A stretch of DNA of 64,000 nt. Origin: Camelus ferus (lineage: Eukaryota). How positions within the stretch are numbered: position 1 is the stretch's first letter; each line of letters begins with the position of its first letter. The stretch is taken from NCBI RefSeq assembly GCF_009834535.1, contig NC_045696.1, forward strand, positions 60,080,001 through 60,144,000, written 5' to 3'. Shown here one piece after another: positions 28,975 to 62,566 of the stretch. A program made the translations under genes and the position numbers. The notes under the pieces are model-generated. The model was given only the letters and a program-made list of their open reading frames with translations. It was not told where the DNA came from and made no database searches.

Positions 28975-31900
28975 GTGACAATGATATTTATTTTATTGCA
29001 TCATTTTACTGACTAGAACGCCAGACTTATAGTGGATATAGTATAAAAATAATCAAATTCTTACAAATAATACATTGCTGCTACAGTACGGAATAATTAG
29101 TGGAGGTAGCAATTATAATACAAATTTAAATAACATTCTCATAATGGGTTTAACACTAAGGTTTAAAGTTTTGCAACAAGAAATCTGGGACCCTGTGAGA
29201 ACTCAGAAAGTTCATTTGCCAGCTACATGCTTCATTTAACCATAAATCCAGCAACACAAACAGTAACAAGACTCACAGCCACCCATGATGAGAGGTCATT
29301 TTTTCCTAAGAAACAGGCCAAGGTAACACAGAAACCTGGGGTAGCTTCCCGGGTAGACTGGTTCCATCTCATTCCTATCCAGTCCCATCCTTCCTACCCA
29401 AGGACTCTGCACCTGAGGTGTATTTCTGTGTTTCCCCTAGAAAAAGACAAAGCCAGAATCCAATGGGCAAACACTTTAGAACGTCCTCATTAAAATGCCA
29501 AGAGGACAGAGTCAAAGATCTGTCTCTTTTTAGACCTCAATTGTCCCCTTTGTTTTCACAGGCTTTTCTGTGAGCAGTTTATACCAAATGGGACAGATTA
29601 AAACACTCTTAAAAATATACTTTAGCACAACAAGTTAAGTGACACTTAGTACTTTAATTTTTCTAGTATATTAACCAGGTTCGTCCTCTGGGGATTTGAG
29701 AAAGGAAAAAAGAACACACTTAACAGCCAATTCTACAGAACATATGTTTTCAAAAATGCACACGAGAACCTCAGAATGACGCTTTGTCAACAAGAAGAAA
29801 ATGAAACGTCCCTTCTAATTCCCACAAAAGTTTTCACAGAAAAAAAATCTGTGAAATTCTGATATTAATATTAACGGTATTTTCCAATGAGATGCAAAAT
29901 CCTGAAACACTAAACTTTGCATTTTTCCTCTCTCCAAAGAAGTGTTCTAGTTTCCATATGAGTAAGTATCTTAGAGCCCGGGCCCAAATCCCTGGTGTGG
30001 GGTGTGCTAAGCTAAACTCATCCAGGAGCAAGGAGAGAAACACTCTGGCTTCGTCAGCCGCCTTCACACAGTTACAGGCACACCTCCCACCCCCCGTGGG
30101 CAAGGGGGCTTAACAGAGGCCCCAACAGCCACGTGAGACACGTGACCCTGGCGTGTCTGCTCTGGGACGTCCACATCTGAATAAATAGCATCCTTCAAAG
30201 ACACTTCCTTGGGCAGCCATCCGGCCTCGTACTGCAAAGATGCTGCCCTCCCATTTGGACCAACTTTAAGAACGACCTCTTCAAGAGCTTAACTGTTACA
30301 TCTTCGTTTTGGACCTCAAATGCCATCAGCCAGCTTGAAAACACAATCCATTTAGTAATGTTGGTTCTTAATGACATAGCTGCTTCTGAAATTAAACTTC
30401 TGTCAAAGGAGGGGAATTTGTCAGCATTTAAGACATTCAACTGAATAAGTTCCAGACTCTGATAACATTCACAAAGATCTGCTTCCAATATGTGGGAAAT
30501 CCGGCCTTACCACGGAACCAGGTGAGGCAGCCTTCAGATGGATGTCTAAGTCTAGCTGTGTCTGTCAAAACCCAGAGCATCACCGTACACTCCTACATCC
30601 AAAGCCATGTACCACTGTGCTTCTTGCTAAGCACAAGCTGACCACAGCTTTCTTAATGACCATCACAGGTGTCCAAAAAATACATGTAACAACATACCTG
30701 AAAGGACTTTTTCAACATTTTGTTTTTGTACTTCATGTCATCAGTTTAGTTCCAGTTTAATAATATCAAAGTTCTAAAAACCCAAACCAAAACAAACCCA
30801 AACTTATTCTCAGCCCACTCTCTCATGCTCTCTTTAATACTGGATGGTGAGGCATCAGCCAGGAGGAGCAAGCCACGTAAAGGGTTTGGATCCTGACTCT
30901 CCAAGGCAGGGGCTTGTCCTCTCTGAAGGTTCCCACATCCGAGAATGAGTGCTCTCATGTCCACCTCACCAGGGTGTGGTGAGGGCAAGGATCCTGCACA
31001 GATCCTGGCCCTGCTGGAAACACAAGAGATGCTCTTGGGACTATTAAGACTTCCTAAATTGTCTCCAGTGCCCTGGGCTGGCTCGTGGGGCAAAGAGGAA
31101 GAGATACAATAGGACCTCTGGAGCTACAACCAAACCCACAGATGTGGGAGGCTCCAGGTGAGCGCTGCCCTGCTCTGCGTCCCCAGGCTCAGGTACGCTG
31201 CAGGATGCGGGGGTTCTGTTCAGCCCACTCTTCCCTACCCTCTCAGCATCTCCCGGGCTGCTAGGGGCCACTTTTCCTTTCCTCCCTTTGTCCTCTAGTC
31301 CTGGGACCCCATGTAGGACTGGGACATTTCTGTGCACAGGAAACGCACACCCCAGGTGGGAGGACTAACACTGAGGGCTTCTGCTCCCCCAGGGTGCATC
31401 CAGCTTGTCCCTTCAGTCCAGGGCTGCTGCCCCACAAACAATTTCTTGGCTCAGGGGGGACCCTTCTGGAGGCATATTCACCCCAAGCAGGAGTGAAGCT
31501 GGCCTCTCCCTTCCTCACCCAGGCAGGCAGCCGGCCCTGAGGAACAGTCAGGCTGCTTTCATGCCTTCTTAGACCCTGACACCCTGGAGATGCACTTTTC
31601 CACTCTCAGAAGCCTCCTAGAAACTGCACAGAACTGTGAACTCAACCTTCGGGGGTGTGCTACAGTACTCACGATAAAAGAAAAAGACAACACTCTTAAT
31701 CCATTTCACATGCACAAAACCCACTCACAGGAAAGCATTCTTGGAACTCACAGCACACTCTTTTCTGGACGTTGGGATCCTGCTCCAGGATGCTTTGGGG
31801 ACAGACCACTCCATGTGGGGGAGCATACAGCTTCCGGCCCTGGTATCGGAGATGATTTGCCAGTGGAGGCAGCAGGCGTGTATGCCTGGGAACAGCCCCC

Positions 31901-33950
31901 ACTGTGCTCTGGGCCCTGGAGGTGAGCAGGGCTCTGCGTCTAGAGCAGGAAGCAGCTGCCTCAGGAGGGACCCAGTCCTGTTGGCTCAGGTGAGCTGAGT
32001 GCAGGAGCTCCGAGCTCTCCAGTTAGATGCTGAGGCCGTGAGACTCAGAGGGCTGTTTGGTTCCACGGGGAGAGGCAAGACCCAAGATTTCTCAAAGGGG
32101 ATGCTCTGAGATTTTAAGTTGGCACCCACTGACAAAAAACAGGACTCTTTGTATCTATCTCATGAGATGAGTGCAATTGAACTGCAAAAGTGGCATCGCA
32201 TCTGAGCAGCCTTCCTGCTCGTGGAGACCATGGGACACAGGAGTTTGCACTTAAAGCTGTTAGGATGAGAATTCCATAAGATTAAGGATTAGATACATTC
32301 TGAAGACAGTAGAGAATCTTGAAGAAACCACCATGCCCAGGACAGAACTGTCTCCAAAGGCCGCACCATTTCCAGAAACGAGTGTGCCATTGGGCTCCAA
32401 GCTTCAGGGTGGGAACAATTTTTTTTACCTCTGTGTTCTCTTTACCCCAAACCAGGATGTTCAAAAGTAGATGATGAGAATGATCACAATTCCACAAGGA
32501 GTAAAGACACCACACTGGATATGCACCCCCCCCCCAACCCTCCTCCGCACACAGGATCCAGGTCACGGGCATAATAAGTAAGACACAGGGTGTTTCTTTC
32601 CCCAAGGCAAACGCTCAACTCCCTAACTGGCCAGGAGACTTAGTTCTCCAAAGCCGACTTGAATTATACCCATGCTTCTGGAGGGAACTATGTGATACTA
32701 TGAAGAGTTACAAATTACTGTCTGAGAGAAAATAAGTTATTTCTTCAATGAATAAATAGCATTGAGTGGTTGGTGGAACCACTCAAGCTACACTGGGTGT
32801 GGACGAGACCAGAAATTCTAGGACAGGTGCTGCACTAGGTAAGCAGACTCACGTGTGGCTCCCCTCAGCTCCCTCTCCTTCCCCAGCAATATGCAGGGCT
32901 TCCCAAAGGGCTGGCGTTCCAGATAATCGAACTCGCCTATCCATCCTGCTCCTCTAACCACATCCAGCTGCTTTTGTATTAGTGGTGAAATAGCAGCTCA
33001 GACCCAACCTGCAGTCAGCTTTTCACTTCTGCTCCCTACGTGGCAGCCTGGGCCTCAAAGCAGGCGCTCAGAGCCCCCACACCACACGGTGCCCTCGGGG
33101 GTCGACCTTCCACCAGGAACTTCACCCCGTGCCCGCTGCTGCCTGCTGGGCTCACTGTGGGGCAGCTGGAGCCTCTAATTAGAACCAAGTGCAAGTTGTT
33201 TGCCCTGATGCAGGCGTGTATGGAAAAGCGAGCTGTGACAGCAAAGGGAAAAAACCTTAAATAAACGTGTCACCTGGACTAAAGAAAGCACACTGGAGTT
33301 GTGTGCTGTGCCTCACACATTTCAGCTCCTCGTTTGGAGGCGGGTGGGGGGGTCTGTCTGGCCAACGTAGCACAAGAAGACTTAGAAGCATGTGGAAACC
33401 CTGTGCCTTAACCTGCGGCATCTCCAGACACTAGTGGTAGGCCCGTCGGCACCTGTGCTTCAGCACGGAGCTACTGGGCAGGAAAACAACTGAGGAGGCA
33501 GTATTTCGCTGTCAAAGCATCACCAAATTGAGGCCTCTGGAAGTGTCTGAGGAAGAGGCCTTCTTTCCGGAGCAGTCTTGAAAAACACCTGAAAGGAGAC
33601 CTCCCTCCCTGCTTTTGCATCTACCGAGGTGCAAGCTAAGGAAAACCTGGGTCCTTGCAATGATGCCTAGTGATCAGCCCTAAGGAACGTCATCCCCCAG
33701 CCGTGGCCCTGCTGCAGGCACGCGGGGATCCCATGGTACTGGCCCGTGTTCACATTCACAGTAACAATGCAGGTGCCGATGAGCAGCCGGCAGTTCCAGG
33801 TCCACGGGCTCCCGCTGTCGCCTCCCCTGTGGTCACGGCGCTTCCGCCCGGCCCCTTCCGCTGGTGTGGCTCCTCTAGCCCCGGGAGCGGCCCCGGGCGC
33901 TGCTCCCCGTCCGGTCCTCTGAGCGATGGAGGCCCCTGCGCCGTCTGCAC
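28975..33950 (-). other. HEG1: HEG1 long 3'UTR (~5 kb)
   Basis: Repeat-poor stretch after the stop codon, AU-rich distal end, overlapping AATAAA hexamers at 28987-28997. Confidence 0.7.
28987..28997 (-). terminator. Tandem polyadenylation signals (AATAAAATAAA) of the HEG1 3'UTR
   Basis: tttattttatt on + strand, followed on the minus strand by GU/U-rich sequence (tgtgtttttct). Confidence 0.7.
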
Positions 33951-34100
33951 TTAGAAGTAGTCCCTCCTCCTGCTCTCATCGCTGGTGAAAGCTGGGTTAT
34001 ACTGTCCGGGGAAAACGCAAGAATGCCGCGATCCTGGCAATCCAGTGTAGGCCGGGTAGAGGCCTTTCCGTTCAAGTTCAGGATTCCTTATACTGGTGAG
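33951..34100 (-). CDS. HEG1: HEG1 last coding exon (LTSIRNPELERKGLYPAYTGLPGSRHSCVFPGQYNPAFTSDESRRRDYF*)
   Basis: ctctctttggccaccag acceptor; TAA at 33951-33953; C-terminal DYF KRIT1-binding end of HEG1. Confidence 0.95.
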   Translation of the reverse strand, partial: LTSIRNPELERKGLYPAYTGLPGSRHSCVFPGQYNPAFTSDESRRRDYF

Positions 34101-34911
34101 CTGGTGGCCAAAGAGAGAAGAGAAGTCGGTTTATGATTCTTGGGTTTCAATTAGATAGTTAAAAACAACGACGACGACAATGACGAATGCTCCATTTCGA
34201 TGAATTTATGCGGAGGCAGCTATTCCCGCAGAGCAAGGCTTGACTTGGAAGTCACACCTGCCAGGTCAGTCTCTGTGGAACCTGAGGCACCTTTGCCCAT
34301 ATGTCAAAAGGGGATTTTTAGAAGTATTACATCGTCAAGAGCAGCCCACAGGCCAACAGAGGAAAAGCCTAAGTTGATTATTATCTTGATTATTATCGAA
34401 ATTAATTATTATCTGATTATTATTTTGACTTAAAAAAAGAGTATCTTTCTCTGTGGAGCACAATGGCTTTAAATCCTCTCTGGCATTTACCAGAACACTA
34501 GTATCCCTGCCGCGAATGGGGGACTGACCTTGGCAATATCATCTGAGCACCTGTCACACTGCTCAGCCTACCATGTCTGAAATGAAGATGGGGTTCATCT
34601 AAGTTTGTAATTCTATCTATTAAAGGCAACTTTTCAGCTAGTGGCCAGAAACACGCAGCTATACCTCAAACAGCTCCACAGGGCATGAGAAGTCACCTGA
34701 TGGCTGTTTATTTTTCAGCTCAGGTATCTCCACTCGTGTTTGCTTTATGGTTGATATCGTGTAACCTGAGATGAACTGACAGGGCACCGGAATATGACAT
34801 GCGCTATTCAATGTGGGACAGGAGAAGCAGGGTTCAGGGTGGTCTCTCATTTGTCCAACTGATGCAGTCCACGGCCAGATACAGAAAATTATTATTTTTT
34901 TACATTAAAAA

Positions 34912-35270
34912 AATCTTTTTTATTGAAGTGTAGTTGATTTACAATATTAGTTTCAGGTATACAGCAAAAAGATTCAGTTATGCACATATACGTGTACATA
35001 CATGTATTTTCAGATTCTTTTCCATTATTGCTTATTACAAGAAATTGAATCTACTTCCCTGTGCTATACAGTAGGTTCTTGTTTGTCTATTTTATAAATA
35101 GTAGTGTGTATCTGTTTATCCCAAACTCCTAATTTGTCCCTCCCCTCCCCTTTTTCTTTGGTGACCATAGTTTGTTTTCTATGTCTGTGAGTCTATTTCT
35201 GGTTTGTAAATAAAATTTCTATCTTTTTTTAGATTCTACATGTAAGTGATATAATATTTGTCTTTCTCTT
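34912..35270 (-). mobile_element. L1 3'UTR fragment in a HEG1 intron
   Basis: ttttattgaagtgtagttgatttacaatattagtttcaggtatacagc...ttccctgtgctatacagtagg. Confidence 0.85.
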
Positions 35271-35777
35271 GGACATAGCAAATTACTAAAGATCTACTGA
35301 CTATTAAAGACCTATTGAATCTGCGAAACCTCTGTCATGGGCTGGTTGAGGACAGCATGTTCTCTCTACACCTTTTCCCCGTCCCTCAGTTTCAATTTCC
35401 CAACCTTATGACGTAAAGCATGGCCAACAAGATAAAAATGGATGGGCCAAAGGCTAAATATCATTAAATTCTTTCTGTATCTTTTAGCTTCCAATCCTGT
35501 AACTTAAAGGCAATTTCAACGACAAGAGGTTTATTGCTACAACCCCATAAATTATGGACTGTGTTCCATGGAAATATTATCTCAACGTCAAAACTAATAA
35601 ATACCAAGCAAAGAGATAGTAAGTAAACTGAATATTAAATTATGTGAATAATGGGCGTAGGCCACCATTCTCTTTAACCCTTAACTAGCTGGAGTGCTCT
35701 GACTACCACAAAACGGAAGCCCTTGAATTCTCAGAGGAAAGTGGAGCCCAGAGACCCCCGGGGGTGGACATACACAC

Positions 35778-35952
35778 CGAGTGATACACGTCCGTCATCT
35801 GGAGGAGGTTCTTGGTACTTCCGTTCTCGTGCATCTCGACAGCTTCCCGGCCCCATTCTTGGGACCGAGGGTTCTTGGGGTACTCAGCATATGGGGACAT
35901 TTGGAAATCGCCACTTTTGAAGATGAGTTTGCTTATGTCATTTTTATTCTTT
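35778..35952 (-). CDS. HEG1: HEG1 penultimate exon (KNKNDISKLIFKSGDFQMSPYAEYPKNPRSQEWGREAVEMHENGSTKNLLQMTDVYHS), 175 nt, phase 2 to 0
   Basis: tttttttcccacag acceptor, TCG|GTGTGT donor; HEG1 cytoplasmic sequence. Confidence 0.95.
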
Positions 35953-37484
35953 CTGTGGGAAAAAAAATTTAACATTTAAATGAATAAGTTCTGTAAAGAA
36001 ACGGTATCTGTGAAAGTGCCATCTCGTCACTTACAAGGTAAATTAGACTAAAGCTACCACTATTTTTTGTAGCTGCCCACTGAGGAATGTTATTGTTAAT
36101 TTTAGTATTTGCCTAAAACAAGTAAAAATGCAATTAGGTGCAAAAAAAAAAAAAAAGCCAAAAATCTTTGAACCCAAAGGGCCAGGTTTTTGGGGGCAGA
36201 GAGGACACAGCCCCAGTGGAGCGGATTTAGACTCTTCTAGGGGACAGAGATCTCTAAATCATGGGGGAAACAGGTGCAAATAAGGCTCAAATTCACAAGC
36301 TGTTGGAGTCAGAAGGGCCTTTAGAGTTCTTTAGCCCAGCTGTTCCCCACCTGCTTGAGGAGTTGCGGGGCTGGGGCAACTCTGGCTTTGTGAAGGATGT
36401 GATTTGTCCTGGGGTCACAGTTTGCTACTAGCAAGGCTGGGCTAGAATTCAGGCTTTCGAACTCTCTAGTCAGTCTTCTTTTACTGCGTGAAGCTACTTC
36501 ACGAACCGTAAAAATATGATGTTTTGTTTGCAGAAATGTCCAGCTGTCTTTATACCCATACAGATTCTCATTTCAGGGGGCAGGAAACCCTAGGACAAGT
36601 TCCCTACCTGTGAGAGTTCTCTGACTGGAAAGGGTTGGAGGATATGTCAGTCACCTTGTGCACCCAGCCTAGGGTCAGACATGTTTAGTTATACTTGCCC
36701 TGGGTAAGAGAATCTGGAGTTTCCTCCCTTTACGTAGCTTTCCTGTAAATAAACTTTCTGGGGAAAGCACCAAATCACTCGGGATCATAAAACCAAACGT
36801 CCAGCATGGGGCTTAGGCGTTGTCCCTCCTGACAAGTTCAGAACAGACTTGCAATTCTATTGCTCCCTGGGGGTGGAGCATCCGGTCTCAAACGATGACT
36901 TAATTATTCACAAAGACCTTCTCCTCCCAGGGGCCAGCAGAGACAGGCTCTCCTTCCACACTACCTGGTTGCTCCGGGACACTTAGCAGACCCCTGAAGC
37001 ATTCGAGGTTCGTCTCTCTAGCTCCTAGTCTCATTCCCAGTGTTTTATTTCCACTCACATAGTTTATCTCTGATGCTTTGCTAGCAACATTGTAAATTAT
37101 AGGCAATGGCTGAACCGTGAGGCCTGAATCCCTGGATGGGAAGTTGGAGCAGCTTGCTCTCTGCAGCCTCCCTGGAGGAAGAGGATATCTTAAACTGTCC
37201 TGCATATCAATGGTCCAAAAGATAATTTGCTATTGTGTAAGTTCCCTTCATCTGTGATGTCAGGATAATTCCTGCTGTTTATTACCATCCAAACCAAAGG
37301 TCTGAGTTTTCTCTTATCTGAATAATCTAGGAGAAGGGGACCAGCTCTGTTCTTTCTCTTCCTTTTCCAGTAGAAACCCATCCCGCTGGTGTCCAGCAGC
37401 CCAGAGCCAAGTTTACTACTGTCTGCTCCTCGCCACTGCTAACGACTTCAGTGAACCCCTTTCATCTCTTTTTGTTTCTTCATT

Positions 37485-38655
37485 TTCCCACTTAAAATGT
37501 ACAAGTCAACGGTTTGTAGTATATTCAGAGCTGTGTAACCATCATCACAATCAATTCCAGCACAATTTCATCACCCTGGAAAGAAACCCATACTCCTTAG
37601 CTGTTACCCGTCATTCTGCCCCTGCCTACCCAGCCCTAGGTAACCGCTAATCTACATTCTGTCTCTCTTTGACTTGCCTATTTTAGACATTTCCAATAAA
37701 TGCAGTCATACATATGTGGTCTTCTGTGACTGGCTTAATTCATGCAGCATACTGTTTTCAAGGTTTATGCACATTACAGCATGTATCAGTAGTTGGTTCC
37801 TTTTCGTGGCTGAATAATATTCCATTGTATGGATATGGCATTTTGTTCATCCATCAGTTGATGGATATTGGGGTTATTTTCAACTTTTGGTGACTATGAA
37901 CTGGTCCTCTATGAAAATTTATGTCCATATTTCTGTGTGGACATCATTTTCATTTCTCTTGGTTTGTACCTAAGAGTGGAAATGCTGGGTCAAATGGCAA
38001 CTCTGCTTAACTTTCTGAGGAACGGCCAGTTTTTTTTCAAAGTGGCTACACCATTTTACGTTTCCAGCAGCAGTGTATGAGCATCCTAATTCTCCCACAT
38101 TCTCACCGACATTTGCTATTTTCTATTTTTTGTTTGTTTTCAATAGTCATCTTTGGGTGTGAAGTGGTATCCAATTTCGGTTTTTTGGGTTCCCCCCCAC
38201 CCCCGATGTTGGTTCTGATTGCATTTTCTGATAGCTAATGACTTTGAGCATCTTTTCATATGTTACTGGCAATTTCATATCTTCTTTGGAGAAATGTCTA
38301 TTCAAATTCTTTGCCCACTTTTAAATTGGGTTGCATTTTTATTACTGAGTTGTAAGAATTCTTTATATGTTCTAGACACATGTCCCTTGTTAGACAGATG
38401 ATTTACAAATATTTTCTCCCCTCCTGTGGGTTGTCTTCTCACTTTTTTGGGAGGAGGGGTAACTAGGCTTATTTATTTGTTTAATGGAGGTCCTGGGAGA
38501 CTGAACCCAGGACCTCCTGCTAAGCACGTGCTCTACCACTGAGCTATACCCTCCCCTCATCTTTTCAGTTTCTTGACAGTGTTCTTTGAAGCCGAGTTTT
38601 TCATGTTGATGAAGTCCAATCTATCTTTTTTCTTTTGTTGCTTGTGCTTTTGAAT
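37485..38655 (-). mobile_element. L1MB-like 3' end, antisense, interrupted by a SINE
   Basis: ggctgaataatattccattgtatggata, tttggagaaatgtctattcaaa, ttgatgaagtccaat motifs. Confidence 0.85.
38449..38556 (-). mobile_element. Camelid-type tRNA-derived SINE
   Basis: gaacccaggacctc...tgctctaccactgagctataccctcccc (antisense A/B boxes); imperfect target duplication tcttctcacttt / tcttttcagttt. Confidence 0.8.
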
Positions 38656-38870
38656 ATTCTTTTTTTTCCACTAAAATCCCATTTGCTCTCCTTTTCTTTC
38701 CCTGATGGCAGTGCCTGTCAGAAATTTGCCTTTCTTTTTCTCTAATGGTTCAGTCATAGATTATCATTAATACTGTACACCACCCCAGACATTCTTTATG
38801 AGGATAAAAATGGACCCTTGTTTAGCACAGGCAAAGGGACAGAATTGGGATGTGGACGCCCGGCACTCAC

Positions 38871-38958
38871 CGGCAACAGGTAACAATCAGTGCGATGCCC
38901 AGGATGAGGAGAAGCCCACCTCCCGCTGCCGCAATCACCACGGTGATAAGCTGATAGG
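38871..38958 (-). CDS. HEG1: HEG1 transmembrane exon (YQLITVVIAAAGGGLLLILGIALIVTCCR), 88 nt, phase 1 to 2
   Basis: gtgtttag acceptor, CG|GTGAGT donor; peptide matches the HEG1 TM segment as recalled. Confidence 0.95.
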
Positions 38959-39142
38959 CTAAACACGGTTCAGGAGAAAAGGAAAACGTGGATCGGTAAG
39001 AGGTAATGAATGAATGAAGGAATGCCCCAAAATGGTCCCCCTCCCCACCCCAAGGCCACCCCAGTACCTCAGCTGGGGACCACCTTTCATTCCCTGGGCC
39101 CCCAGCAAGGGCGGCTAAAGGCTGGCTCTGCATTTTCTCTAC

Positions 39143-39635
39143 TGAAGGGGAGCAGAACGTGTCACCCCAAAATATGCCTCTTTACCTATTTATTATTTAG
39201 AGCTGATATTTCTGCAGGCACAGAAGAAGCTCTGAAAACTGAGTCCTAGTTACCCCTTGGTAAGGGAAATTTACATTAGAAGGAGGCTTGTACCAGGAAG
39301 AGAGCTAACACCAGAGATGACCTGTTCACCTGAGAGACTTATCTGCTGGCAGGAATCTTTGCTTCCCAAACATTTCCTCTTCGCACTTTTCCCCTGTGAA
39401 CTGCCTTTTCCCATTTGCAGCCCCAGGCCCCCGGCCCTTTCCTCATCTCAGGAGGGTATATGAGCCTCAATCATCTGGCTGCCTGAGTCTCATATCTTTG
39501 TGGGGGCTCCCATGTGTATGCACATAATTAAAATTGTGTTTTTCTCCTCTTAGTCTGGCTTCTGCAGAGGGTGGGGGGATGTGTCTCAGCCAAGAACCTA
39601 GGAAAGAGAAGAAAAATGATTTTTCTTTCCCTACA
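39143..39635 (+). mobile_element. ERV1-type solo LTR (MER34/MER39-like)
   Basis: TG...CA ends, tgtcaccccaaaatatgcc start, TATA-like gggtatatga, attaaa signal, ttttctttccctaca end. Confidence 0.65.
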
Positions 39636-42124: not shown

Positions 42125-42312
42125 GACTAGTGCTTCTCACACTTTTCCTGCACATCTCAGTCACCCAGGGGGCTTGTGAAAACTCAGATGCCTGGTCCCC
42201 AGCCCAAGAGACTTAATTCAGTAAGTCTGGGCTAGACCTGAGAAGCTGTATCTCCAGCAGGTTCCAGGGGATGGAGATGCTGCCAGCCTGCAGACCACAC
42301 CTAAGTGACACT
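42125..42312. mobile_element. MER5A-like hAT element
   Basis: agtgcttctcacactt...cagtcacccagggggcttgtgaaaactcagatgcctgg...ggagatgctgccagcctgcagaccacac. Confidence 0.65.
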
Positions 42313-45349: not shown

Positions 45350-45418
45350 GTGAAAGATTTCAAACAAGCCTTTTAAGAGCTGTCCCCCAGAAGTCAGATG
45401 TTTACAAGCCATAGGAGA

Positions 45419-48819: not shown

Positions 48820-50373
48820 CTAGACAAAAAGAGAGGTGGGGGGGAATTCTTAGAAAAGTATTGCAACAGAAACGTATGAGACAATTTAGATTCATAAAGG
48901 ATTACTATAATTTTAATTAACATTATTTAATACTACTGTTCCAATTAGAACCCATCATTGTGCTGAGTTCTTTATGCATATTAGCTTATTTGATCTTTAT
49001 CCTTTGAGGGAGGCATCCTTTTGTCCATTTCACAGATGAGAAAACAAACCCAGAGAAGTCAGGGAACTAGCCCGAGACCACAGACTTAGTAGCAGGAAGG
49101 GCAAGGCTGTGAAGCCAGGTGTCTGATTTAAATCCCACACCGACTCAGCCACCAAAGGGCTTTCTTCAGAGGTTATACTTGAGGTAAGGGCTCCAGCGAT
49201 GTGGAGAAAAGGCTTGAAATGAATTCGAGAGTTAAGGTTCACCTCAGGTAGGACCAACAGGGGCGCCCATGGGACGTTCGTCCCCGGCTCTTGCTGACTA
49301 GACCTGTGTCTGACCCCAAGTGGCGCACTTTGTGGAGTCGTCCCGTGGTGCACACACGAGACATCCGGACTTCCATGATTAAAAGGAACTTGATGTGTGA
49401 AATCAGCCATAGGATTTCATAATAAAAATAAGTCAGGTTTTCCCAGAATGTTCAAAGTGCATTAAGGTCCTCAAAGGATGACTCTCTCACCAGGGCTGCC
49501 AGCAGAAGTGATCGCCCTCGGCGGGGGGGGGGGGGGGGGGGTGGGTCCGGTGCTGTGCTCCCTCCCCAGCGCCTCCCCCACCTCCCATGTCGTCTCCTCT
49601 CTCAGCCTATTTTCTACTCTCCTGGGGATGCCTCACCCCACTTCTCCCTCCTTCCCTTTCTCCCCACTCTTCCTTTTGAAAACAAATCCTTTCTCTCCTC
49701 CCCTCTCTTCTCTCCTCTCTGGCTCCCTCCTCTTCCTGGGCCATCCCTCCTTCCTTCTGTCCTGTCCCTCTTCCCCGCAGGAGTCCCCTGAAGGCTTTCT
49801 CCTCTCAGCATTTCACTGGGTCGCACTAAGCAGTGCCAGCTGTGCTTATCCAATGCACATCTGAGGACAAGCTAGTCTCCTCGCAAGCCCTCCCAAGGGA
49901 AATAAAGCATTACTAGCCTCAGAAATTGATCTGGCTGCCTTGAGGTCTGCGGGGAGGAGAGGGGAGCTTTGCCCTTCTGTGGGCTGGATGGGAAGGGTCC
50001 ATGTAAACAGGACCGTGCTTACATCCAGCAGTGCTGCCCAGGCCTGAGCCAGGTCCTAGTTCCTCCAACAGTCTGGGAGCTGTCATCACAACCACTGGAG
50101 TCATATCCGTAGAAACGGATTTAAAGAGACCATAGAGGCATCTAAATTAAAGCTTCTCTTTTTACAGCTGAGGAAATAGACAGCCAGAGAAATTAAGCGA
50201 TGTGTTTAAAGTCACATAGATGGTCAGTGTTAGGGACCAGGTGGTGGCTATTTACAATAGCTTTGGATTAAAAAAAAAAGCCTACAGGACAGCCAGGGCT
50301 GGTGATGATACAACAGCCAGGTCCCTGGGGCATCTCACTCAGCAAAGGAAACAGAAAGCACGTCAAGGCTCAC

Positions 50374-50578
50374 CTAATAGTCGGGGTTGGGTATACAACC
50401 CTAGTTCGAATAGGGATTCCGAGCACTACCGTCTTTTGGGAGGTTCACCCTGACTTTAGGGAAGACGTTCCCATCTGCTCCTAGGTTGCTAAAGCCAGTA
50501 GTCTCATACAGTCTCAGACTGTGAAAGTCGTTCTCAATCAGGTTCTGTTCTTCCACATTCTTCTTTTTGCTCTTTGAA
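50374..50578 (-). CDS. MUC13: MUC13 cytoplasmic-tail exon (SKSKKKNVEEQNLIENDF...NPYSN*GCIPNPDY*), premature TAG at 50401-50403
   Basis: ttacag acceptor; ancestral-type stop after PDY at 50374-50376, followed directly by a GTGAGC donor. Confidence 0.9.
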
Positions 50579-52589: not shown

Positions 52590-52674
52590 CTCATTGAGAT
52601 GACCAATGCTATCAGCAAACCGAGGATGAGGATGCCAGCAATGATGCCCACAATGGTGATGATCAGATAAATAT
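52590..52674 (-). CDS. MUC13: MUC13 transmembrane exon (NIYLIITIVGIIAGILILGLLIALVISM), 85 nt, phase 1 to 2
   Basis: ttttccctttcag acceptor, AG|GTACAA donor, hydrophobic helix; seen in ORF 52418..52777. Confidence 0.92.
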
Positions 52675-54255: not shown

Positions 54256-54293
54256 TGTCTTTACAGCCGACTCCGCTGTAGCCAAATGCACAC
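54256..54293 (-). CDS. MUC13: MUC13 38-nt exon (CAFGYSGVGCKD), phase 2 to 1
   Basis: gtttcag acceptor, GTGAGT donor; matches CAFGYSGLDCKD. Confidence 0.9.
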
Positions 54294-54756: not shown

Positions 54757-55050
54757 GCTGCTGCTGCTGCTGCTGATGGTGATGATGGTGGTAGTGGTGA
54801 TGGTGGTGATGATGGTGATGATGGTGGTGTAGCGGTGATTGTGATGGTGATGGTGATGGTGATGATGGTGGTGATGCTGGTGATGATGGTGGTGTAATGG
54901 TGGTGGTGATGGTGGTCGTGGTGATGGTGATATTGGTGGTGGTGGTCATAGTGGTGGCAGTGAGAGGGGTGGTGTTGGGTGGTTGGTGGTGGTGGTGGTA
55001 ATGACTGATGGTTATGATGACGATAGTGATGATGACAGTCATGGTCAGTG
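54757..55050. repeat. Degenerate trinucleotide tract (GCT)n then (TGG/TGA)n in a MUC13 intron
   Basis: Directly visible; produces spurious poly-His/Thr/Val ORFs. Confidence 0.9.
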
Positions 55051-55180
55051 ATGCTCTGTACCTACCAGCTTTTGGCAGGAGCCAACATCCCTGACCCTAA
55101 ACTCATACATCTGTTACAAGCTCTATCCTTTTCGCTCAGCCTCAGCTACGGCAAGATGAAAAAGCAGTGTCTTCTCTTAC

Positions 55181-55311
55181 GGTTGACAGGCCCCGTGACT
55201 GTCCTCCGCGGTAGCCCGGCAGGCACACGCAGTCCGCGCTCGTGCTGCTCCTCACTAAACATTGCCGCTTGTTCTCTGCGTTGCAGGTGTCATCGCAGGT
55301 TGGACCGAAGG
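55181..55311 (-). CDS. MUC13: MUC13 EGF-like exon (AFGPTCDDTCNAENKRQCLVRSSTSADCVCLPGY/+1 shift/EDSHGACQP), 131 nt, frameshifted
   Basis: ttttgcag acceptor, GTAAGA donor. Flanking phases require 130 nt; deleting one base at 55207-55210 restores YREDSHGACQP (human YQEDANGNCQK, recalled). Confidence 0.88.
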
Positions 55312-55640
55312 CTGCAAAACAGAGTGATTTCTGGGTAATTTTCAGACACAACCTCCTCCTATCCAAAGTGACATGTCACAGAATACAGTGTTTTTCACAT
55401 TGCTCTTTCTAGGTAAAAGGAAGTGCTCAGTGGTCTGCACGTAATGTGCCCCCTGTGAAGCTGCACAAGGCTCTCCTCACCGGCTCTCAGCCAAGGCCCC
55501 ACCCAGGTCCGTAGGTCTACAGCCAACATTCCCACTCCTTAGACTCTGAAATGCACATGGGAACTTGAGCAGGACAGTCTGTATTTTGAAAATGTATAAG
55601 GAGAGAGGAGAGGGACATTTAGAACCAAGGGAGCCCTTAC

Positions 55641-55766
55641 CGACACACATGGGGATCTGCGGGTTGGGCCTCACCAGCCCCTGTTTGCACTGACACAGTA
55701 AACCACTGGAGCAGTTGTCCTGGTCATTCTTCTTCTCACAACCATAGTAGTCACACCGGTCTTGCT
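55641..55766 (-). CDS. MUC13: MUC13 EGF-like exon (EQDRCDYYGCEKKNDQDNCSSGLLCQCKQGLVRPNPQIPMCV), 126 nt, phase 1 to 1
   Basis: tctcag acceptor, G|GTAAGG donor, six cysteines, CDYYGC and RPNPQ motifs. Confidence 0.92.
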
Positions 55767-58589
55767 CTGAGAGGCACACAGAATTCAAAGATGAATTAGG
55801 AAGACAGTATGGATAAGGTGACTTGTAAAGCACTCACTCAATTGTTGTGGTAATTGCTTTTTAATAGGTTTGGAATTTAACAAATAAAGACCTGAGACTC
55901 TAAAATTCAAGTCCCCTAATCATTTCTTCTATATCTATATCCTATATTACTCAATTCAAATTAATTCAATCCAATGCAGTACAGTTATGTTCAATTTCAA
56001 GACCTCTTTTGCACCTGGCTCTTTGCTGGATTCCACAGGGGACACAGTAGCTGTGTAAGTTTCAGGCCCCATCTTTGTAGAGTTACATGACTGTCACATC
56101 CAGCAGCAGCCTTAGGAACAGTGGGAACTCAGGGGCTCGGGTAGCTAAAGGTCACATTGTGGAGGAGGTGGGTACTGGGCCAAGTGCTGAAAGATGGGGA
56201 AGATATGAACAGTCAAAGGAGAGACAAAATCTGTCGAAGTGCAGTAAGTGAGGCATGAAAAGAAGTGAAGGATTGTTGTCCGGGAGTGACGGAGTTGTAC
56301 GTGGGCAGAAGAGAGGCAGAGAGGTGAGGAGGGAACGTCAGGATTTCTCAGCTCTGCCGTTGATTGGCTGTGGGCTTCCTGTTCAATTATTTCATTGGTG
56401 GTGGGTCCACGTTCCCTCCATCTATGAACTAAGGCTAATGATTCTTGTTTCGTGTGATTGTTGCGAGAATTGAATGAGATCATGGAAATGCAAGTGTCCA
56501 CTCAGCAAATAATCGTTGTTTTGTTCATTCACAGGTAGAGCAGGGTTTGAACACAAGGCTAAGGACATTGATGTTTATCATATAAGCCTGAAAATCATTG
56601 GTCGATTTTGACCAGAAGCATGGCAGGAGGAAGCAATCTGGTAAGTACGTTAGTCTAGAAGCAGAGCGGAAGGCATTAGGGATAAATGGGGGAATGTGAG
56701 GATGGATGATGGGGAGGGGATAGGAGCAGGTAGAGCAGATACGTGCTCACTCTCTTCTAAACACCCCAAATCCATACCTGACCTTCCTTCATCACCTGCC
56801 CTTTCAAAATGCCTCCAATTAAAAGCTTAGAGAAAGAGATTCTATAGCTTTTGACACAGAAGAATCTGTCTTTGCAGCAGGAGCAAGAGAGCATGAGAAG
56901 CTGTTTTTCTCCAGAAGTTTGGCACTCTCACGTCCATTTGCTGGGCGGTTCATGCTCCTGTGGCCACCTCGAGCTGGCAGCATGTGGTATTTGCTAATGT
57001 ATCTCAGAGTACGTGACTGGTCTCAGAGTGGGGAGATGCTGAGAGCAGCTGGTAAAGAAGAGCATTTCTCAGTCTGAGGCTGAACGGTTTCAAGTTGGCC
57101 AGAGCTCAGAGCCAAGTAGAACCAAATGAGAGCACGGCAAAGGGTACTCAACTATGTCCTGAAGGGTACAATGGTTATTTTCATCTAGTACCCACTCTGA
57201 GCGGTCAGTCCCCATGCTGATGGGAACCCTCAACTTCCTCGCACTTGCTGGAGATCTCATCTAGCCCAAAGCAGAGCGTAGGATAAGGTTCTGTCTTGCC
57301 CTGCTGACAATTTCACCTTCCGGGGGAGAGGTTCTGACTGCATGAATTGCTACCCTCAGCCAAATTCTGACCCCAAGGAGAAATTTATCGGCAGGCAGAA
57401 GTGATGGGTCTCCCGGAAGACAAGGATCACGTGACAGCCAGAAAGAGGAGTGTGACTTAGAGTAAATGTTGACATGTTCAGAAAGGACAAGGTGTAGGTC
57501 CACGGCATGAGACTCTGGAAGATGAAAGTAGAAGAGAAGGTAAGAAGCTCTGAAAATGTGATTGTAATTGTGCAGCTGCAAGTGATCCCAATAGATGTAG
57601 AAAAAAAATACAGTGGGAGAGTGTCTGTAACTTAAGAAACTGGCATGGTTCGCACAGAAGCTCTCAGATGAGAGACAGAAACAAAATATGAAAAGAAGGT
57701 CCTGGAACCAAAGATGGAATATTAAACATGTGACACAGTCTAGAGTCCCAAATGAGTTCAAGTTTGCCACAAGCAAAACCCAAAACAACAGCAAGAGTCC
57801 AATGACACAGAGCAAAGGGTTAAACATGAAAAATGGGTAAATCAGTGAAGGGGTGTGTGTCTCTTCCACCAGGAAGTAATACTTGGATGGAAAAGAGTTG
57901 AATGGACATGGCTAAGGGAACTGAAGTCCCCGGAAAGAACACAGAGCAGAGCAGCCCCCATCATTCCTGACAAAAGTTTAAGTATTTTATTCCAGAGCAT
58001 TTATATTCCAGGTCCTGAGAGAACAGTGAGAATCTTTGTGGAATCTTGAAAAAAAGATAAAAGAGAGAGAGAGAGAGAAGGTGCCGGAAAACGATCAATG
58101 ACCAGGATTTCTTTATATTTTCAAAAAGAGAAATAAATTTTGCAAACTAGGCCATGGAGGTTCCAAACATCAAAAAGCAAACATTCAAGAGACGAAAAGA
58201 GGAGTCTTGGAAGGATCAAAAATGAAGATGAGGGAGGCGGGCAGGGGTCAAGGGAAGGTGGGGGGAGGCCCAGAGAGAAAAGGACTTCAGGACGGGTAGG
58301 GAGCAGTGTCAGAGGCTACAGAGAAGTCAGAGAAATTGTTCCTCAGCAGAAGCCTTTGGATTTGGTTGCCACAGGGAGAACCAGTTATAAAGAACTTCCC
58401 GCAGGCCAGCCGGCCCTAACAGCTCCCTCTGAGGGGAGGACCTCCTGAGGACGGCTGTGCTGGTTGCAGTCATAGTACCAGTTTACTCCTGCCTTCCTAT
58501 CTACTCCCCTAGCAGCACCGGGCACACTGTGTTTGGTCATGTGAACTGAGGACAGTTGTAAATCTAACATAAGCAGAAAGTGAGAAACA

Positions 58590-59329: not shown

Positions 59330-59490
59330 CAGTATATCCTGTAAAGACATCTGCATTGTCTTCAATTGCTTTTGTAATTGCATTAGATACTGTAGTCTCA
59401 TTTAGTTCTGTAGTTTCCTTAAAGATGTTTACTACTTCTACGTCAACATCCTTGTCACCAGCACGCAATTCAGATCTTGCTGCAGATGTC
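59330..59490 (-). CDS. MUC13: MUC13 SEA-domain exon (TSAARSELRAGDKDVDVEVVNIFKETTELNETTVSNAITKAIEDNADVFTGYT), 161 nt, phase 2 to 1
   Basis: AG acceptor (in-frame alternative 6 nt upstream, exon start 59496), G|GTAAGT donor; RSELRAGDK matches MUC13 RSEMRADDK; overlaps ORF 59109..59468. Confidence 0.88.
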
Positions 59491-62400
59491 CTAAGACTGA
59501 AATGAAATCATTACTTGATGAATTGAACTTAAGCTTCAACAAATAGGTCTTCAGACCTCCCAGACTCTCAAATCTCCCAGCACTAGTCCCGACCCACTGT
59601 TCTAAATCCACAGTTGAGGCCCACATAGGGAGACCTGGGGTTGCAGTAAGATGGCAGTTCATAGCCCAGAGATCTCTATTCGATGTGCATTCAGAGGAAA
59701 TCTATGGCTACAATAAGGTCCTGCTGGAAGGTACGTAAAAACATTGTGGACAAACTTGTTTAGCATCTAGGAGCCCGGAGTGAACCAGAAGTAGAAGTTG
59801 CATCTGAAATAGGCAAAGTGTCACTTTCTGCAGAAAATCAGGAGTACATTTCTTAACAACCTGTAAAATCTCAGACTTGTGCTTTGAGAGAGACAGATGG
59901 GTGTGTGTTCCTCCCTGCGCACAGAGAGAGCAGTAATCCACCACACAGAGTCTGGGTCATTCCCAGAAAAGGCCCAGGAAGCCAGCAGGCAGTTCAAAGT
60001 GCATGCAGATTGGGCCTGGGCACATAGGACCCAGAGAAGAACTGATCCCAAGGAGGGTGGGGCTGGGGGAAGCATCAGCATACAGCCCCACATCACATCC
60101 CCAGACACTAAGTCCTCCTATGACCAGGACATCGTAAGGGCCTCTCTCTCGAATCAGCGCTGCAATTTGGGGCCCTAAGAACAGCTGTGCCAAGTTCTGT
60201 TTCATTATCCAAAAGGAATCAAGTCACACAACCACTGAGAGAGAGAGAGAGAGAAACGACTGTTAAAACCTGCTTCCCTCTCTGATTAGTGTCCGTGTTT
60301 TTTTTTAAGACTCAGGATCTATTTTTCCTGTCTAATTATTTTCCTGTATTCTCTTTTGACATCTGAATAAACACAGAAGCTTGAAAACATAGCCAGCCTG
60401 CTTGGGAAATGTTCACCGCCATGTGGGTTCTGCAGAACAATCAAGAAAAACCGAACATGAACCAAATTCTGCTTTTTAGGAATCATCCCATAAAAAGGGA
60501 TTCCAAAACGAAAAATGGGCTTCCAATTCTAATTAAAAGTTTCCTACAGTAATTTGCTCATAGTAGGATTTGAAGGCGGGAGTGGAAGGAACAGGGCAGT
60601 GAGAAAGGGGTACTTGACACAAGCAATTCTTTATCGGTTGAAAGATGCCCAGAGATCCACGGTGTAACTCTGCAGTGGGGCTAGGGAAGAAGTGCCGTCC
60701 ATTATTCATTGATTCAGAGAACCTACTAGCACACACCCCAAGTCAGGAGGCAAGACGTCACACTCACAGAACATTTACAGGAAACACTGGAGCAGCCGCG
60801 CACTTAAGCGACAAGAGGTGCAGAATGCAGGACTACAGCGCGGCTTGCAGTTAAGCACCCAGGGATCGAGACCCAGGATGGACAGGACACCGTCTTCTGT
60901 GGCCCAAGACCAGTCCCAGCTTCCCTGAACCTGAGTGTCCTCCTCTGTCCAAACAGAGCTTCGAGTGTTTGAGAAACTCTGAGGATCCTTCTCATTCCAA
61001 CATTTAGGCAGGAAATAAAAAGATCTTGGGGAATCAGAGGCAAGGGCACTGGTCTGGAGTCTAAGAAATGCCTTTGAAAGTGAAACCAAGGTCCACGTGC
61101 CGGGCAGGGCCCCTGAGCTGAAGGGAGTCACTCCTCCCCAGGACACTGAGCTCACAGGTGAGGGGTTGCCTCCAAACACCGCTGGCTCCCTTTCAGTAAC
61201 TTCTTAGGAATGACGGGAGTGCCAGAGTGTCAGGGAACCCCCAGATGACCTTGTGGGGCCAGCTCTCCCTCACACTTGCAGGGTCTGTTATTCTGGACAG
61301 GAAACAGACGGGAACTAACGTGTTGAAACTGACTCTGTTCCAGGCACTTTGCACAGGGAATCTTCCCAAGGGTATCTCATTTGCTCCTCCCGGGGTTTCA
61401 AAAGTTGATTGGATTATCCCAGTTGTACAGATGAAGTAATAAAAATTTAGAGAGGTTAAATCACCTGCCTAGTCACACAGCAAGTGGTGCCAAGGCCAGG
61501 ATTCGAGTGTGGATTTAGCTGACCCCACCACACTGCACTGATCCTGTTTTTATCCAGTCATCCCGATGCACGAACTCCTTGTTTTCCCTTAAGCCAAACC
61601 TAATGCCCTGACAGTTGGTGGCTGTACCTCCAGCTTTGAGCCTCCACATCGGGGCTCAGCTCCCTGCCTGCTGCTTGCCCTGGGCCTCCTATTGGCTGCC
61701 TGCTGTCCTGGCCACCAATCATATGGGACCCTTGTTCACCGCCAAGATCAAAACGCACCAGCTTTAGGAGGTCTTCTCTGAATTTATATATATGAATGTA
61801 TATATTGTACATTTTTCCAGTATGGATTTGACAAAGCTTATAAAGATAGATGAGGTAGTAAAACCATAAAATACAAATACATTAGGGCTGCTTTTTCTGC
61901 ATGACTCCGTTCACCTTAGAGCTGCCTTTCCCCGGCCTGCTGCACTTGTGTGTCAGCAGGCTTCAGAGAAGGCCGAGATGGAATCACTGACTTTTTGAGG
62001 CTCCTCTGCCTCTTTGGGTTCCTTAGTAGCACGTAACCCTGGTCATTGAATATTCATATGCTCACTGAATGCCTGTTCTTCCTGAAGAAAGAGCTCAGGA
62101 CGGGCCCTTCAGTGGCCAGGTGTGTGCCTGGGGAACTCCTCTCTGCTCATTCCCCCCATGAGGGAAGAGACAGCCGTGAGCCACTCATTCTGCTCCTGGC
62201 CCCCTGGAAGGAACATGGTTTGTAGCCAAGGGATCAAACCAAACAAACTGATGACTGGTGATGTCATGTGTGCACACTGCTGTGTCGCCAATCACAGGCA
62301 GCATCTTGCTGTCCCCAGGCTACACCCTGCGCACCCAGGCATGGCTCAGTATGACATCAGAGGCTGGTCCCTCTGCAGTGAGTGCTCTTCCTGACATGTG

Positions 62401-62510
62401 ACTCGCCACCCTAGGGCCTCAGTGCCTCACGGGGAATGCCAGAGAAGATGGGAAGATAGGCATACACACACCTGCTTCCAAAGTTCCCCTTCAGTCCACA
62501 GCAAACTTAC

Positions 62511-62566
62511 CTTATTTTAACAATTACAGTCTGTCCGTAATCAGAATTGTTAAATGCCTTTTTAAA
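62511..62566 (-). CDS. MUC13: MUC13 SEA-domain exon (FKKAFNNSDYGQTVIVKI), 56 nt, phase 0 to 2
   Basis: ttcctccacag acceptor, AG|GTAAGT donor; resembles human FKDVFGTSVYGQTVILTV (recalled). Confidence 0.88.

Follow-up and report, generated by a model that had tools for sequence, protein, structure and literature searches.

Human and mouse carry the genes HEG1, MUC13 and ITGB5 in this order, with a single MUC13 and a HEG1-to-MUC13 spacer similar in size to that of the camel. In a 64,000-nucleotide stretch of the Camelus ferus genome (the window; contig NC_045696.1, positions 60,080,001 to 60,144,000), only the 3′ end of HEG1 is found and it lies downstream of a MUC13 gene, which raises the question of how this reversed order came about. 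As originally predicted, MUC13 is encoded on the minus strand with its poly(A) signal at ~47.85 kb, and the HEG1 transmembrane (TM) exon, two tail exons and 3′UTR, expected ~9 kb past MUC13, map 8.9 kb further on (Table 1). The HEG1 exons that should precede them (ACEDGYRLENETCM / SCPFGLGGLNCGN), which the same prediction had failed to find, are indeed not in the window; they are single-copy at about +128.5–128.8 kb (all such positions are window coordinates, negative values lying left of position 1).

A direct tandem duplication at the HEG1–MUC13 locus

The gene order is odd because a block comprising the end of HEG1 and the entire gene of the gut mucin MUC13 is present twice in tandem in this assembly. 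Self-comparison of 464 kb around the window, a region without N according to the gap check of the assembly, visualized a direct tandem duplication (self-blastn and chaining, one C. ferus assembly): the chained self-matches form 26 collinear direct blocks with 57.1 kb aligned, in addition to a 9.5-kb block dropped by chaining. Copy 1 occupies approximately −51.6 to +43.17 kb and copy 2 the interval from +43.21 to +122.45 kb, which corresponds to a duplicated block of ~80–95 kb. The two collinear copies meet at one novel junction, the single one inside the window (43,174–43,208). Homology to the right boundary stops by ~43,174 and homology to the left boundary (−51.6 kb) begins at ~43,208; no repeat is common to the left and right outer boundaries. 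The unit contains the last three HEG1 exons, ~3.5–4 kb of the preceding intron, ~31 kb of spacer, MUC13 and ~4.6 kb beyond MUC13. A tandem duplication of the last three HEG1 exons, spacer and MUC13 had been postulated beforehand, and the self-comparison bears this out.

In this assembly, the minus strand reads complete HEG1, MUC13-A, the orphan HEG1 TM exon with two tail exons and 3′UTR, MUC13-B and an integrin-beta gene, whose Integrin_beta exons, likewise on the minus strand, span −119 to −90 kb. This is the predicted succession HEG1–MUC13a–orphan HEG1 3′ module–MUC13b. The second MUC13 is found, as foreseen, to the left of position 1: its first exon is near −2.6 kb and its tail occupies −45.1 to −45.5 kb. 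Genome-wide, the last HEG1 exon has two matches, 77 kb apart on one strand; full-length HEG1 proteins map once, at +128.5–163 kb, and their last exons map twice. For MUC13, protein mapping recovers two complete sets of exons, and both genes possess their own signal-peptide exon and a full upstream spacer.

Many kb-sized insertions are present in one copy only. The spacer of copy 1 is paralogous to +82.7–106.2 kb, with a mix of 95–98.5% and 80–86% identity and kb-sized copy-specific insertions, and in the HEG1 intron remnant identity drops from 100% to 83–90% towards the end. The flank downstream of MUC13-A consists of blocks with K2P of 0.25, 0.013 and 0.16 and harbours a 1.4-kb copy-specific interspersed repeat (43,924–45,346), dispersed copies of which occur in both orientations.

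On the basis of these data, we propose that the last three HEG1 exons, spacer, MUC13 and a short downstream flank were duplicated directly in tandem, and that the window spans the point where the two copies join. The duplication likely occurred a single time on the camelid stem, with one breakpoint in the intron that precedes the HEG1 TM exon and the other ~4–5 kb past MUC13. It would have been followed by gene conversion and have left a distal HEG1 module that is probably unused. We consider this the best explanation, with a probability of about 0.8.

Table 1. Features mapped in the window.
Feature	Positions	Strand	Basis
Spacer of copy 1, from orphan HEG1 3′ end to MUC13-B promoter/exon 1	1–28,974	−	Collinear blocks
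Orphan HEG1 3′UTR, poly(A) signal at its end (~28.98 kb)	28,975–33,950	−	Identity to true copy
Orphan HEG1 last coding exon, ...RRRDYF and stop, acceptor AG intact	33,951–34,100	−	
Orphan HEG1 first cytoplasmic-tail exon (KNKNDISK...VYHS), splice sites intact	35,778–35,952	−	
Orphan HEG1 TM exon, 88 nt, preceded by a phase-1 intron	38,871–38,958	−	
Truncated HEG1 intron remnant upstream of TM exon, right end of copy 1	38,959–43,174	−	Aligns to +118.2–122.45 kb
Duplication junction, copy 1 end/copy 2 start	43,175–43,207	.	Homology limits
Flank downstream of MUC13-A, left end of copy 2	43,208–47,830	−	Self-alignment blocks
MUC13-A 3′UTR, AATAAA at 47,853	47,831–50,403	−	Identity profile
MUC13-A cytoplasmic-tail exon, type A, ends NPYSN	50,404–50,578	−	Protein mapping
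MUC13-A TM exon, type A, preceded by a phase-1 intron	52,590–52,674	−	
MUC13-A short exon (CAFGYSGVGCKD)	54,256–54,293	−	
MUC13-A EGF exon with frame-shifting 1-bp insertion near 55,208	55,180–55,333	−	
MUC13-A EGF exon	55,633–55,770	−	Protein mapping
MUC13-A SEA-domain region exon	59,331–59,504	−	Protein mapping
MUC13-A interior exon	62,513–62,566	−	Protein mapping

Two types of MUC13

The nearest named relatives of the window gene are MUC13 proteins (best named matches: camel and alpaca 'mucin-13'), and it has the same exon and domain order (PTS, EGF, SEA, EGF, EGF, TM, tail). The full-length NCBI models P0006, the window copy (MUC13-A), and P0005, the copy to the left (MUC13-B), carry a precomputed SEA assignment (PF01390); a Pfam scan of single MUC13-A exons returned no family above the cut-off. 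Position 62,566, originally taken as the limit of MUC13, turned out to be the start of an interior exon and not of the gene. MUC13-A, of which the window contains the 3′ half, runs on to the right, with exons at 65.9–67.4 kb and a PTS repeat exon at 71.9–72.6 kb; the signal peptide is encoded by an exon near 80.47 kb. In this assembly its reading frame is disrupted by the 1-bp insertion, which is absent from copy 1 and from the named dromedary and alpaca proteins, and the NCBI model of the window MUC13 is flagged 'LOW QUALITY PROTEIN'. A third MUC13 block of 29 kb, located 3.9 Mb away, is bounded by 100-N gaps and contains several frame-breaking indels.

In MUC13-A, identity dips locally to 87% at the TM exon, with the adjoining introns at 97–99.5%, and the tail exon is 77–84% identical to copy 1 in 200-bp windows. 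Altogether, the TM/tail exons of the two copies differ at 33 of 83 residues (dN 0.24, dS 0.31; 83 codons), three ectodomain exons together show 1 difference in 366 nucleotides, and the PTS repeat exon measures 0.7 kb in one camel copy and 13 kb in the other. C. ferus and Vicugna pacos each have one type-A and one type-B protein on one chromosome-sized contig, the alpaca pair being known from its proteins and their contig. Type A appears to combine a derived TM segment with a tail ending short of the conserved C-terminal end, and type B an ancestral-like TM segment with a giant PTS exon; the A and B tails each retain different ancestral residues.

If one locus had been assembled twice or mis-joined, the reversed order would be unreal. 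The assembly has trouble with MUC13, as seen from the gap-bounded extra block with its frameshifts and from the 1-bp frameshift in MUC13-A, and tracts of 99–100% identity over more than 10 kb are hard to assemble. However, the 464 kb are free of gaps, the collinear blocks include distances of K2P 0.09–0.25 and many kb-sized copy-specific insertions, and an independent alpaca assembly has annotations for both of the strongly differing TM/tail types. Furthermore, 14 DNA-type runs from 5 studies contain 82–86% of the sampled 31-mers of window positions 29,001–39,000, which exceeds the 57% (5703/9970) also available from the other copy. An artefact is thus very unlikely, and a mis-join, considered as an alternative in the original prediction, conflicts with how far the copies have diverged and with the independent sequencing and protein data. 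A further independent sign of the duplication is the orphan-specific residue in an older C. ferus gene model from a 214-kb contig. Gene order and junction rest on one assembly, with indirect support from the 31-mer shares; a metagenome scan for the junction sequence gave 0 matches.

Age of the duplication and probable gene conversion

K2P distances between the copies are bimodal, with values of 0.013–0.046 versus 0.09–0.25. Within species, MUC13 ectodomain exons and introns are 99–100% identical, and species-specific substitutions in the ectodomains are common to both paralogs. Trees were built from 26 proteins hand-picked from those returned. In the ectodomain tree the paralogs cluster by species, and the AU test rejects paralog grouping (p=3e-5), whereas the TM+tail tree displays a type-A clade (3 rows, SH-aLRT 100) and a type-B clade (2 rows, 99), each across genera. 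Discordant species and paralog trees together with this mosaic of identity are the marks by which we recognize gene conversion. Interlocus conversion would have repeatedly homogenized most of the unit, namely the MUC13 ectodomain exons and introns, the HEG1 3′UTR and the HEG1 TM exon, and the MUC13 TM and cytoplasmic-tail exons would have escaped it, giving rise to the two paralog types. The high overall identity seems to reflect gene conversion, not youth.

Taken at face value, an identity of ~97% would date the duplication to Camelus or even to C. ferus and require no conversion, and the bulk of the aligned sequence is indeed 95–98.5% identical. Nevertheless, this scenario is extremely unlikely, as it conflicts with the occurrence of both paralog types in alpaca, the paralog-specific TM/tail clades across two genera, the bimodal distances and the same species-specific substitutions in the ectodomains of both paralogs. 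Since both types occur in Camelus and Vicugna, the duplication is not recent, and we infer that it is old and predates the split of these genera. The copy-number change that had been suggested is therefore not a recent one.

The timing is loose: a dS of 0.31 (83 codons) and K2P values of up to 0.25 could fit a pre-camelid artiodactyl origin. Duplication in an early artiodactyl or laurasiatherian ancestor, with loss of one copy in other lineages, would also agree with the TM+tail tree, which does not resolve A and B as sisters, and with the 'mucin-13-like' entries of some other species (by name only). We regard it as unlikely, given that the AU test leaves a single camelid clade for TM+tail unrejected (p=0.45) and that the retention of different ancestral residues in both tails is expected from duplicating one ancestral-like gene. 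Moreover, two distinct MUC13 proteins on one contig occur only in camelids among the 120 proteins listed, and a published qPCR study of 60 pigs reports a single MUC13 copy (PMC3440394).

The distal HEG1 module

Orphan and true HEG1 3′UTRs are 98–100% identical in 250-bp windows and have the same poly(A) signal context; the orphan TM exon including 250 bp on each side is 100% identical to the true copy. The last 26 residues of the module, ending in RRRDYF, match PDB 3u7d chain B, 'Protein HEG homolog 1' (E=1.3e-12, 23/26 identical), the HEG1 peptide solved with KRIT1. Contiguity with HEG1 ectodomain exons is lost: the next HEG1 exons upstream are found only at +128.5 kb, separated from the module by the whole of MUC13-A and a complete proximal 3′ module.

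Compared with the true copy, the orphan module carries 8 nucleotide differences, 7 in the last exon (6 of them amino-acid changing) and 1 in the first tail exon (I to V). All 7 nonsynonymous changes depart from the state common to the true copy and other mammals. Among mammals the HEG1 tail hardly varies. The true last exon has the form of other mammals; the first tail exon of the true copy differs from them at one residue, which the orphan has as well. Because 7 nonsynonymous changes stand against 1 synonymous change, albeit at few sites, the orphan tail shows no sign of coding constraint or purifying selection. Hence, the distal HEG1 module is probably an unused, non-functional by-product, and its intact look may originate from conversion by functional HEG1, which would refresh parts of it.

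Use of the module, either as an alternative HEG1 3′ end or as the end of a chimeric MUC13-A/HEG1 transcript, would be in line with its intact splice sites, frame, poly(A) signal and RRRDYF terminus. As the introns before the MUC13 and HEG1 TM exons are both phase 1, a MUC13–HEG1 join would be in frame. RNA runs contain 39–54% of the words of the orphan stretch; since the 3′UTRs share 80% of their 31-mers, ~43% is calculated for true HEG1 mRNA alone. The top runs (0.54 versus ~0.43) exceed this share, but intronic or shared words can account for it. In addition to the missing constraint, two strong poly(A) sites located upstream (HEG1 and MUC13-A) argue against use, and of the 120 proteins listed, a lone old model of ab initio style has the orphan variant. 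We thus judge use of the module quite improbable. A camelid chimeric mucin with MUC13 ectodomain and the tail for HEG1–KRIT1 junctional signalling, or a variant-tail HEG1 isoform, kept usable by conversion, is a long shot. The originally considered nesting of MUC13 in a HEG1 intron would hold only if HEG1 were spliced to the distal module.

Comparison with known loci

Genes, strand and overall order are the same as at the human, mouse and pig locus, with a camel spacer of that ~31 kb in each copy; by contrast, the camelid unit occurs twice, which results in a second MUC13 and a HEG1 3′ module stranded between the MUC13 genes. Tandem duplications with interlocus gene conversion are known from the globin, opsin and RHD/RHCE pairs. 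As in these, the camel copies are direct, near-identical tracts are found alongside old blocks, and trees follow species or paralogs depending on the part. Unlike in these pairs, the peaks of divergence fall on the small TM and tail exons, whose neighbouring introns are converted, and the unit includes a truncated piece of a neighbouring gene. In kind, this is an ordinary gene duplication, though neatly documented.

The connection of the locus with the pig F4 receptor, mentioned in the original prediction, is real according to PMC3440394, in which pig MUC13A and MUC13B are alleles of one gene. The pig PTS repeat exon, 3–5 kb long, varies in sequence and length. The camelid pair has in common with these, at the candidate F4ac ETEC receptor locus, the gene and its strongly variable PTS exon, but the camelid A and B forms are separate loci, distinguished mainly by TM/tail and repeat length. 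The literature searched yielded neither a camel pathogen-receptor phenotype for MUC13 nor a paper on the camelid duplication. The two genes are already named by NCBI: 'mucin-13' and 'mucin-13-like' of C. ferus and V. pacos are the paralogs analysed here, although neither the tandem unit with its orphan HEG1 module nor the age and the mosaic of conversion can be read from these models alone.

For annotation, the apparent synteny break is explained; HEG1-like exons between camel MUC13 genes represent a duplicated fragment, and old HEG1 models can take up wrong exons. With near-identical ectodomains, long-diverged membrane and cytoplasmic parts and very unequal repeat lengths, the camelid MUC13 genes are a natural pair for probing the role of the MUC13 tail at a locus that in pigs is linked to bacterial adhesion, and they offer a clean evolutionary case of conversion tracts ending at two small exons.

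Tandem duplication of the HEG1 3′ end and MUC13

Self-comparison of the window (C1:60080001-60144000, plus strand) together with 200 kb on each side (464 kb of contig C1, which has 122,453,268 bases in a genome of 2.09 Gb), as proposed with the original prediction, revealed a direct tandem duplication. The duplicated unit comprises the last three HEG1 exons, a spacer, MUC13 and flanking sequence, and its copies 1 and 2 are connected by a chain of 26 collinear blocks covering 57.1 kb, plus a 9.5-kb block dropped by chaining. In the 2.09-Gb genome the last exon of HEG1 matches exactly two places, on the same strand and 77 kb apart. Sequence homologous to the right boundary stops at about 43,174 and sequence homologous to the left boundary starts at about 43,208; the novel junction therefore falls within the window. 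Self-comparison and protein mapping give the assembly order HEG1, MUC13-A, orphan HEG1 3′ module, MUC13-B (see table), which is the order deduced beforehand, and the second MUC13 gene predicted left of position 1 is present. In human and mouse the neighbourhood is ordered HEG1-MUC13-ITGB5; gene content and order in the camel are alike, but the unit is doubled.

Features of the duplicated locus and of the third MUC13 block. Positions are relative to the window (negative to its left, above 64,000 to its right) unless C1 is given.
Feature	Position	Strand	Remark
HEG1 5′ exons	+163 to +128.5 kb	minus	single copy
Copy 2	about +43.21 kb to +122.45 kb		self-comparison
Proximal HEG1 3′ module	TM near +118.1 kb; tail exons 114185-114009, 111353-111201	minus	
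MUC13-A	+80.5 to +47.85 kb	minus	next after proximal HEG1 module
MUC13-A signal-peptide exon	near 80.47 kb	minus	
MUC13-A PTS repeat exon	71.9-72.6 kb (+71,882 to +72,624)	minus	
MUC13-A further exons	65.9-67.4 kb	minus	
MUC13-A exons	62566-62513, 59504-59331, 55770-55633, 55333-55180, 54293-54256, 52674-52590, 50578-50404	minus	mapping of named MUC13 proteins
Junction			between MUC13-A and orphan HEG1 3′ module in minus-strand order
Copy 1	about -51.6 kb to +43.17 kb		self-comparison
Orphan HEG1 3′ module	38.96 to 28.98 kb	minus	
Orphan HEG1 TM exon	38958-38871	minus	
Orphan HEG1 first tail exon	35952-35778	minus	
Orphan HEG1 last exon	34100-33954	minus	plus stop
Orphan HEG1 3′UTR	end near 28.98 kb	minus	
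MUC13-B	-2.6 to about -47.8 kb	minus	then left boundary
MUC13-B last exon	-45,461 to -45,060	minus	carries triple tail motif
Integrin-beta gene	-90 to -119 kb	minus	beyond left boundary
Third MUC13 block	C1:64,024,320-64,053,413 (loci L045-L048)		29.1 kb, 3.9 Mb from locus

The left and right outer boundaries are without any alignable common sequence. We therefore do not put forward NAHR between repeats at the two original breakpoints as the mechanism behind the duplication. A 1.4-kb interspersed repeat at 43,924-45,346, found in copy 2 only, adjoins the junction; related elements are spread through the 464 kb in either orientation.

Several observations argue against the arrangement being an assembly artefact. 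The 464-kb region contains no N and is thus gap-free, and the copies have diverged from each other, each carrying several kb-sized insertions that are absent from the opposite copy. Two classes of MUC13 TM/tail sequence, type A from MUC13-A and type B from MUC13-B, are both found in camel as well as in alpaca, whose genome was assembled independently; dromedary has type A. The orphan-specific residue is present in an earlier C. ferus gene model, which derives from a 214-kb contig. Moreover, 14 DNA-type runs from five studies (one labelled with a second organism) contain 82-86% of the 31-mers sampled from the orphan stretch (29001-39000); of all 31-mers of this stretch, only 57% (5703/9970) also occur in the other copy. 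Caution is nevertheless advised by a 1-bp insertion in MUC13-A (near 55,208) and by a gap-bounded third MUC13 block elsewhere on C1. A 60-nt junction word gave 0 matches in metagenome contigs.

The third block was noticed through a further match to a MUC13 exon at C1:64,036,109. It is flanked on each side by a 100-N gap and ends inside the PTS repeat array. Its TM/tail is of type B and matches copy 1 at 99-100% identity, whereas the 5′ half is nearer to copy 2, and the block carries several frame-breaking indels. Given the bounding gaps, the end in a repeat array and the frameshifts, we think that it is not a genuine third MUC13 gene; the block is probably an alternate or chimeric contig that was put in the wrong place.

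Divergence between the copies and probable gene conversion

The distribution of K2P distances from one copy to the other is bimodal, with long blocks at 0.013-0.046 and interleaved collinear blocks at 0.09-0.25. From 52.75 to 63.4 kb, where the exons and introns of the MUC13 ectodomain lie, most 200-bp windows reach 99-100% identity. Identity drops to 87% in the window of the MUC13 TM exon and to 77-84% in those of the tail exons, against 95-99% in the flanking introns. Over the 83 codons of TM and tail, dN is 0.24 and dS 0.31; in three ectodomain exons, 1 of 366 nucleotides differs. The HEG1 module shows a similar mosaic: identity is 100% across the TM exon and the 250 bp adjoining it at either end, 98-100% in the 3′UTR, and 86-94% in the last exon and the following intron.

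Phylogenies were computed for 26 proteins chosen from those returned (5 camelid and 21 from other mammals). The TM and tail portion yields a type-A clade (three sequences, SH-aLRT 100) and a type-B clade (two sequences, 99), each spanning Camelus and Vicugna, and the ectodomain of the same proteins groups by species. In AU tests, grouping by paralog is rejected for the ectodomain (p=3e-5), and a single camelid clade is not rejected for TM and tail (p=0.45). We infer that the duplication is older than the Camelus/Vicugna split, and that ongoing interlocus conversion homogenises most of the duplicated unit, the MUC13 TM and tail exons being kept apart presumably by selection against conversions that overwrite them. 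The duplication may have originated in the stem lineage of camelids or before it. Camelids alone, in a list of 120 proteins, have two distinct MUC13 proteins encoded on one contig, although the name 'mucin-13-like' is also in use for proteins of some other species. For pig, PMC3440394 describes MUC13 as single-copy by qPCR in 60 animals and its A and B forms as alleles.

The process, a tandem segmental duplication and then concerted evolution from which a few exons escaped, is well known in kind, and both MUC13 genes are already named in the NCBI annotation. Among the papers listed by our literature search, none deals with the duplication in camelids, with the orphan HEG1 module or with the pattern of conversion; passages of one paper covering both MUC13 and alpaca make no mention of a MUC13 duplication, and 'mucin-13-like' appears in the literature searched for fish only. 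The value of the locus lies in a tidy explanation, a warning for annotation and a natural pair of MUC13 tail variants.

The orphan HEG1 module

The HEG1 3′ end in the window is securely identified: its last exon, when translated, matches chain B of PDB 3u7d, 'Protein HEG homolog 1' (E=1.3e-12), and full-length sheep and dolphin HEG1 proteins align at 35954-35778 and 34097-33954. The two preceding exons, reported as missing from the window, are real HEG1 exons, present as a single copy near +128.5-128.8 kb. The orphan module retains intact acceptor, donor and poly(A) signals.

Compared with the proximal module, the orphan differs by 8 nucleotides in 107 codons, 7 of them nonsynonymous and 1 synonymous (NG86 ratio 1.8, from few sites). 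All seven differences between the HEG1 copies are on the orphan side. The proximal last exon has exactly the form common to other mammals, and the proximal first tail exon departs from the mammalian form by one residue, which the orphan shares. The TM exon, inside the 100% conversion tract, does not differ between copies. We read the orphan module as a putatively unconstrained by-product of the breakpoint position; its intact look would stem from modest divergence together with conversion.

RNA-type runs contain 39-54% of the sampled 31-mers of 29001-39000, where the true HEG1 mRNA alone would account for a calculated share of ~0.43. Since 80% of the 31-mers of the orphan 3′UTR are common to the true copy, these shares were dropped as a sign of orphan expression. 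The introns preceding the MUC13 and HEG1 TM exons are both of phase 1, and a MUC13-A/orphan HEG1 chimera would therefore be in frame, which we regard as a structural possibility only.

The older C. ferus 'HEG 1-like' model P0016 (898 aa) joins upstream HEG1 exons to a first tail exon of the orphan type (a 100% match to the orphan), skips the two exons preceding the TM exon and continues into translated 3′UTR; the duplication has thus misled gene prediction.

The two MUC13 genes

Named camel and alpaca MUC13 proteins map onto minus-strand exons of the window, which secures the identity of MUC13-A, and its poly(A) signal, claimed at ~47.85 kb, is an AATAAA at 47,853. Position 62,566, previously taken as the limit of MUC13, is not the gene start, as further MUC13-A exons lie to its right. 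A Pfam scan of single exons returned no family at its cut-off. The PTS repeat exon measures ~13 kb in MUC13-B (-23,685 to -10,571) versus ~0.7 kb in MUC13-A.

The NCBI C. ferus MUC13 proteins are P0005, 'mucin-13-like', and P0006, 'LOW QUALITY PROTEIN: mucin-13, partial'. The insertion near 55,208 shifts the frame of the MUC13-A EGF exon relative to copy 1 and is the cause of the 'LOW QUALITY' flag on the MUC13-A model. It sits in a 200-bp stretch otherwise 100% identical to copy 1 and may be an assembly error; unlike MUC13-A of the window, the type-A proteins of dromedary and alpaca have an intact frame.

The type-A tail (50,404-50,578) ends at ...NPYSN, without the C-terminal ...P(R/P)P(D/E/N)Y that type B and the other aligned mammals have. 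In the C. ferus type-B tail, a single exon carries three tandem copies of a motif of ~29 residues, NLGA.GSIFP.V.LNLSEDSQPQ..Y, as against one copy in the alpaca type-B protein. A MUC13-A intron contains an imperfect (TGG/TGA)n trinucleotide array of ~230 bp (54,774-55,003), which gives rise to long spurious His/Thr-rich ORFs on both strands.
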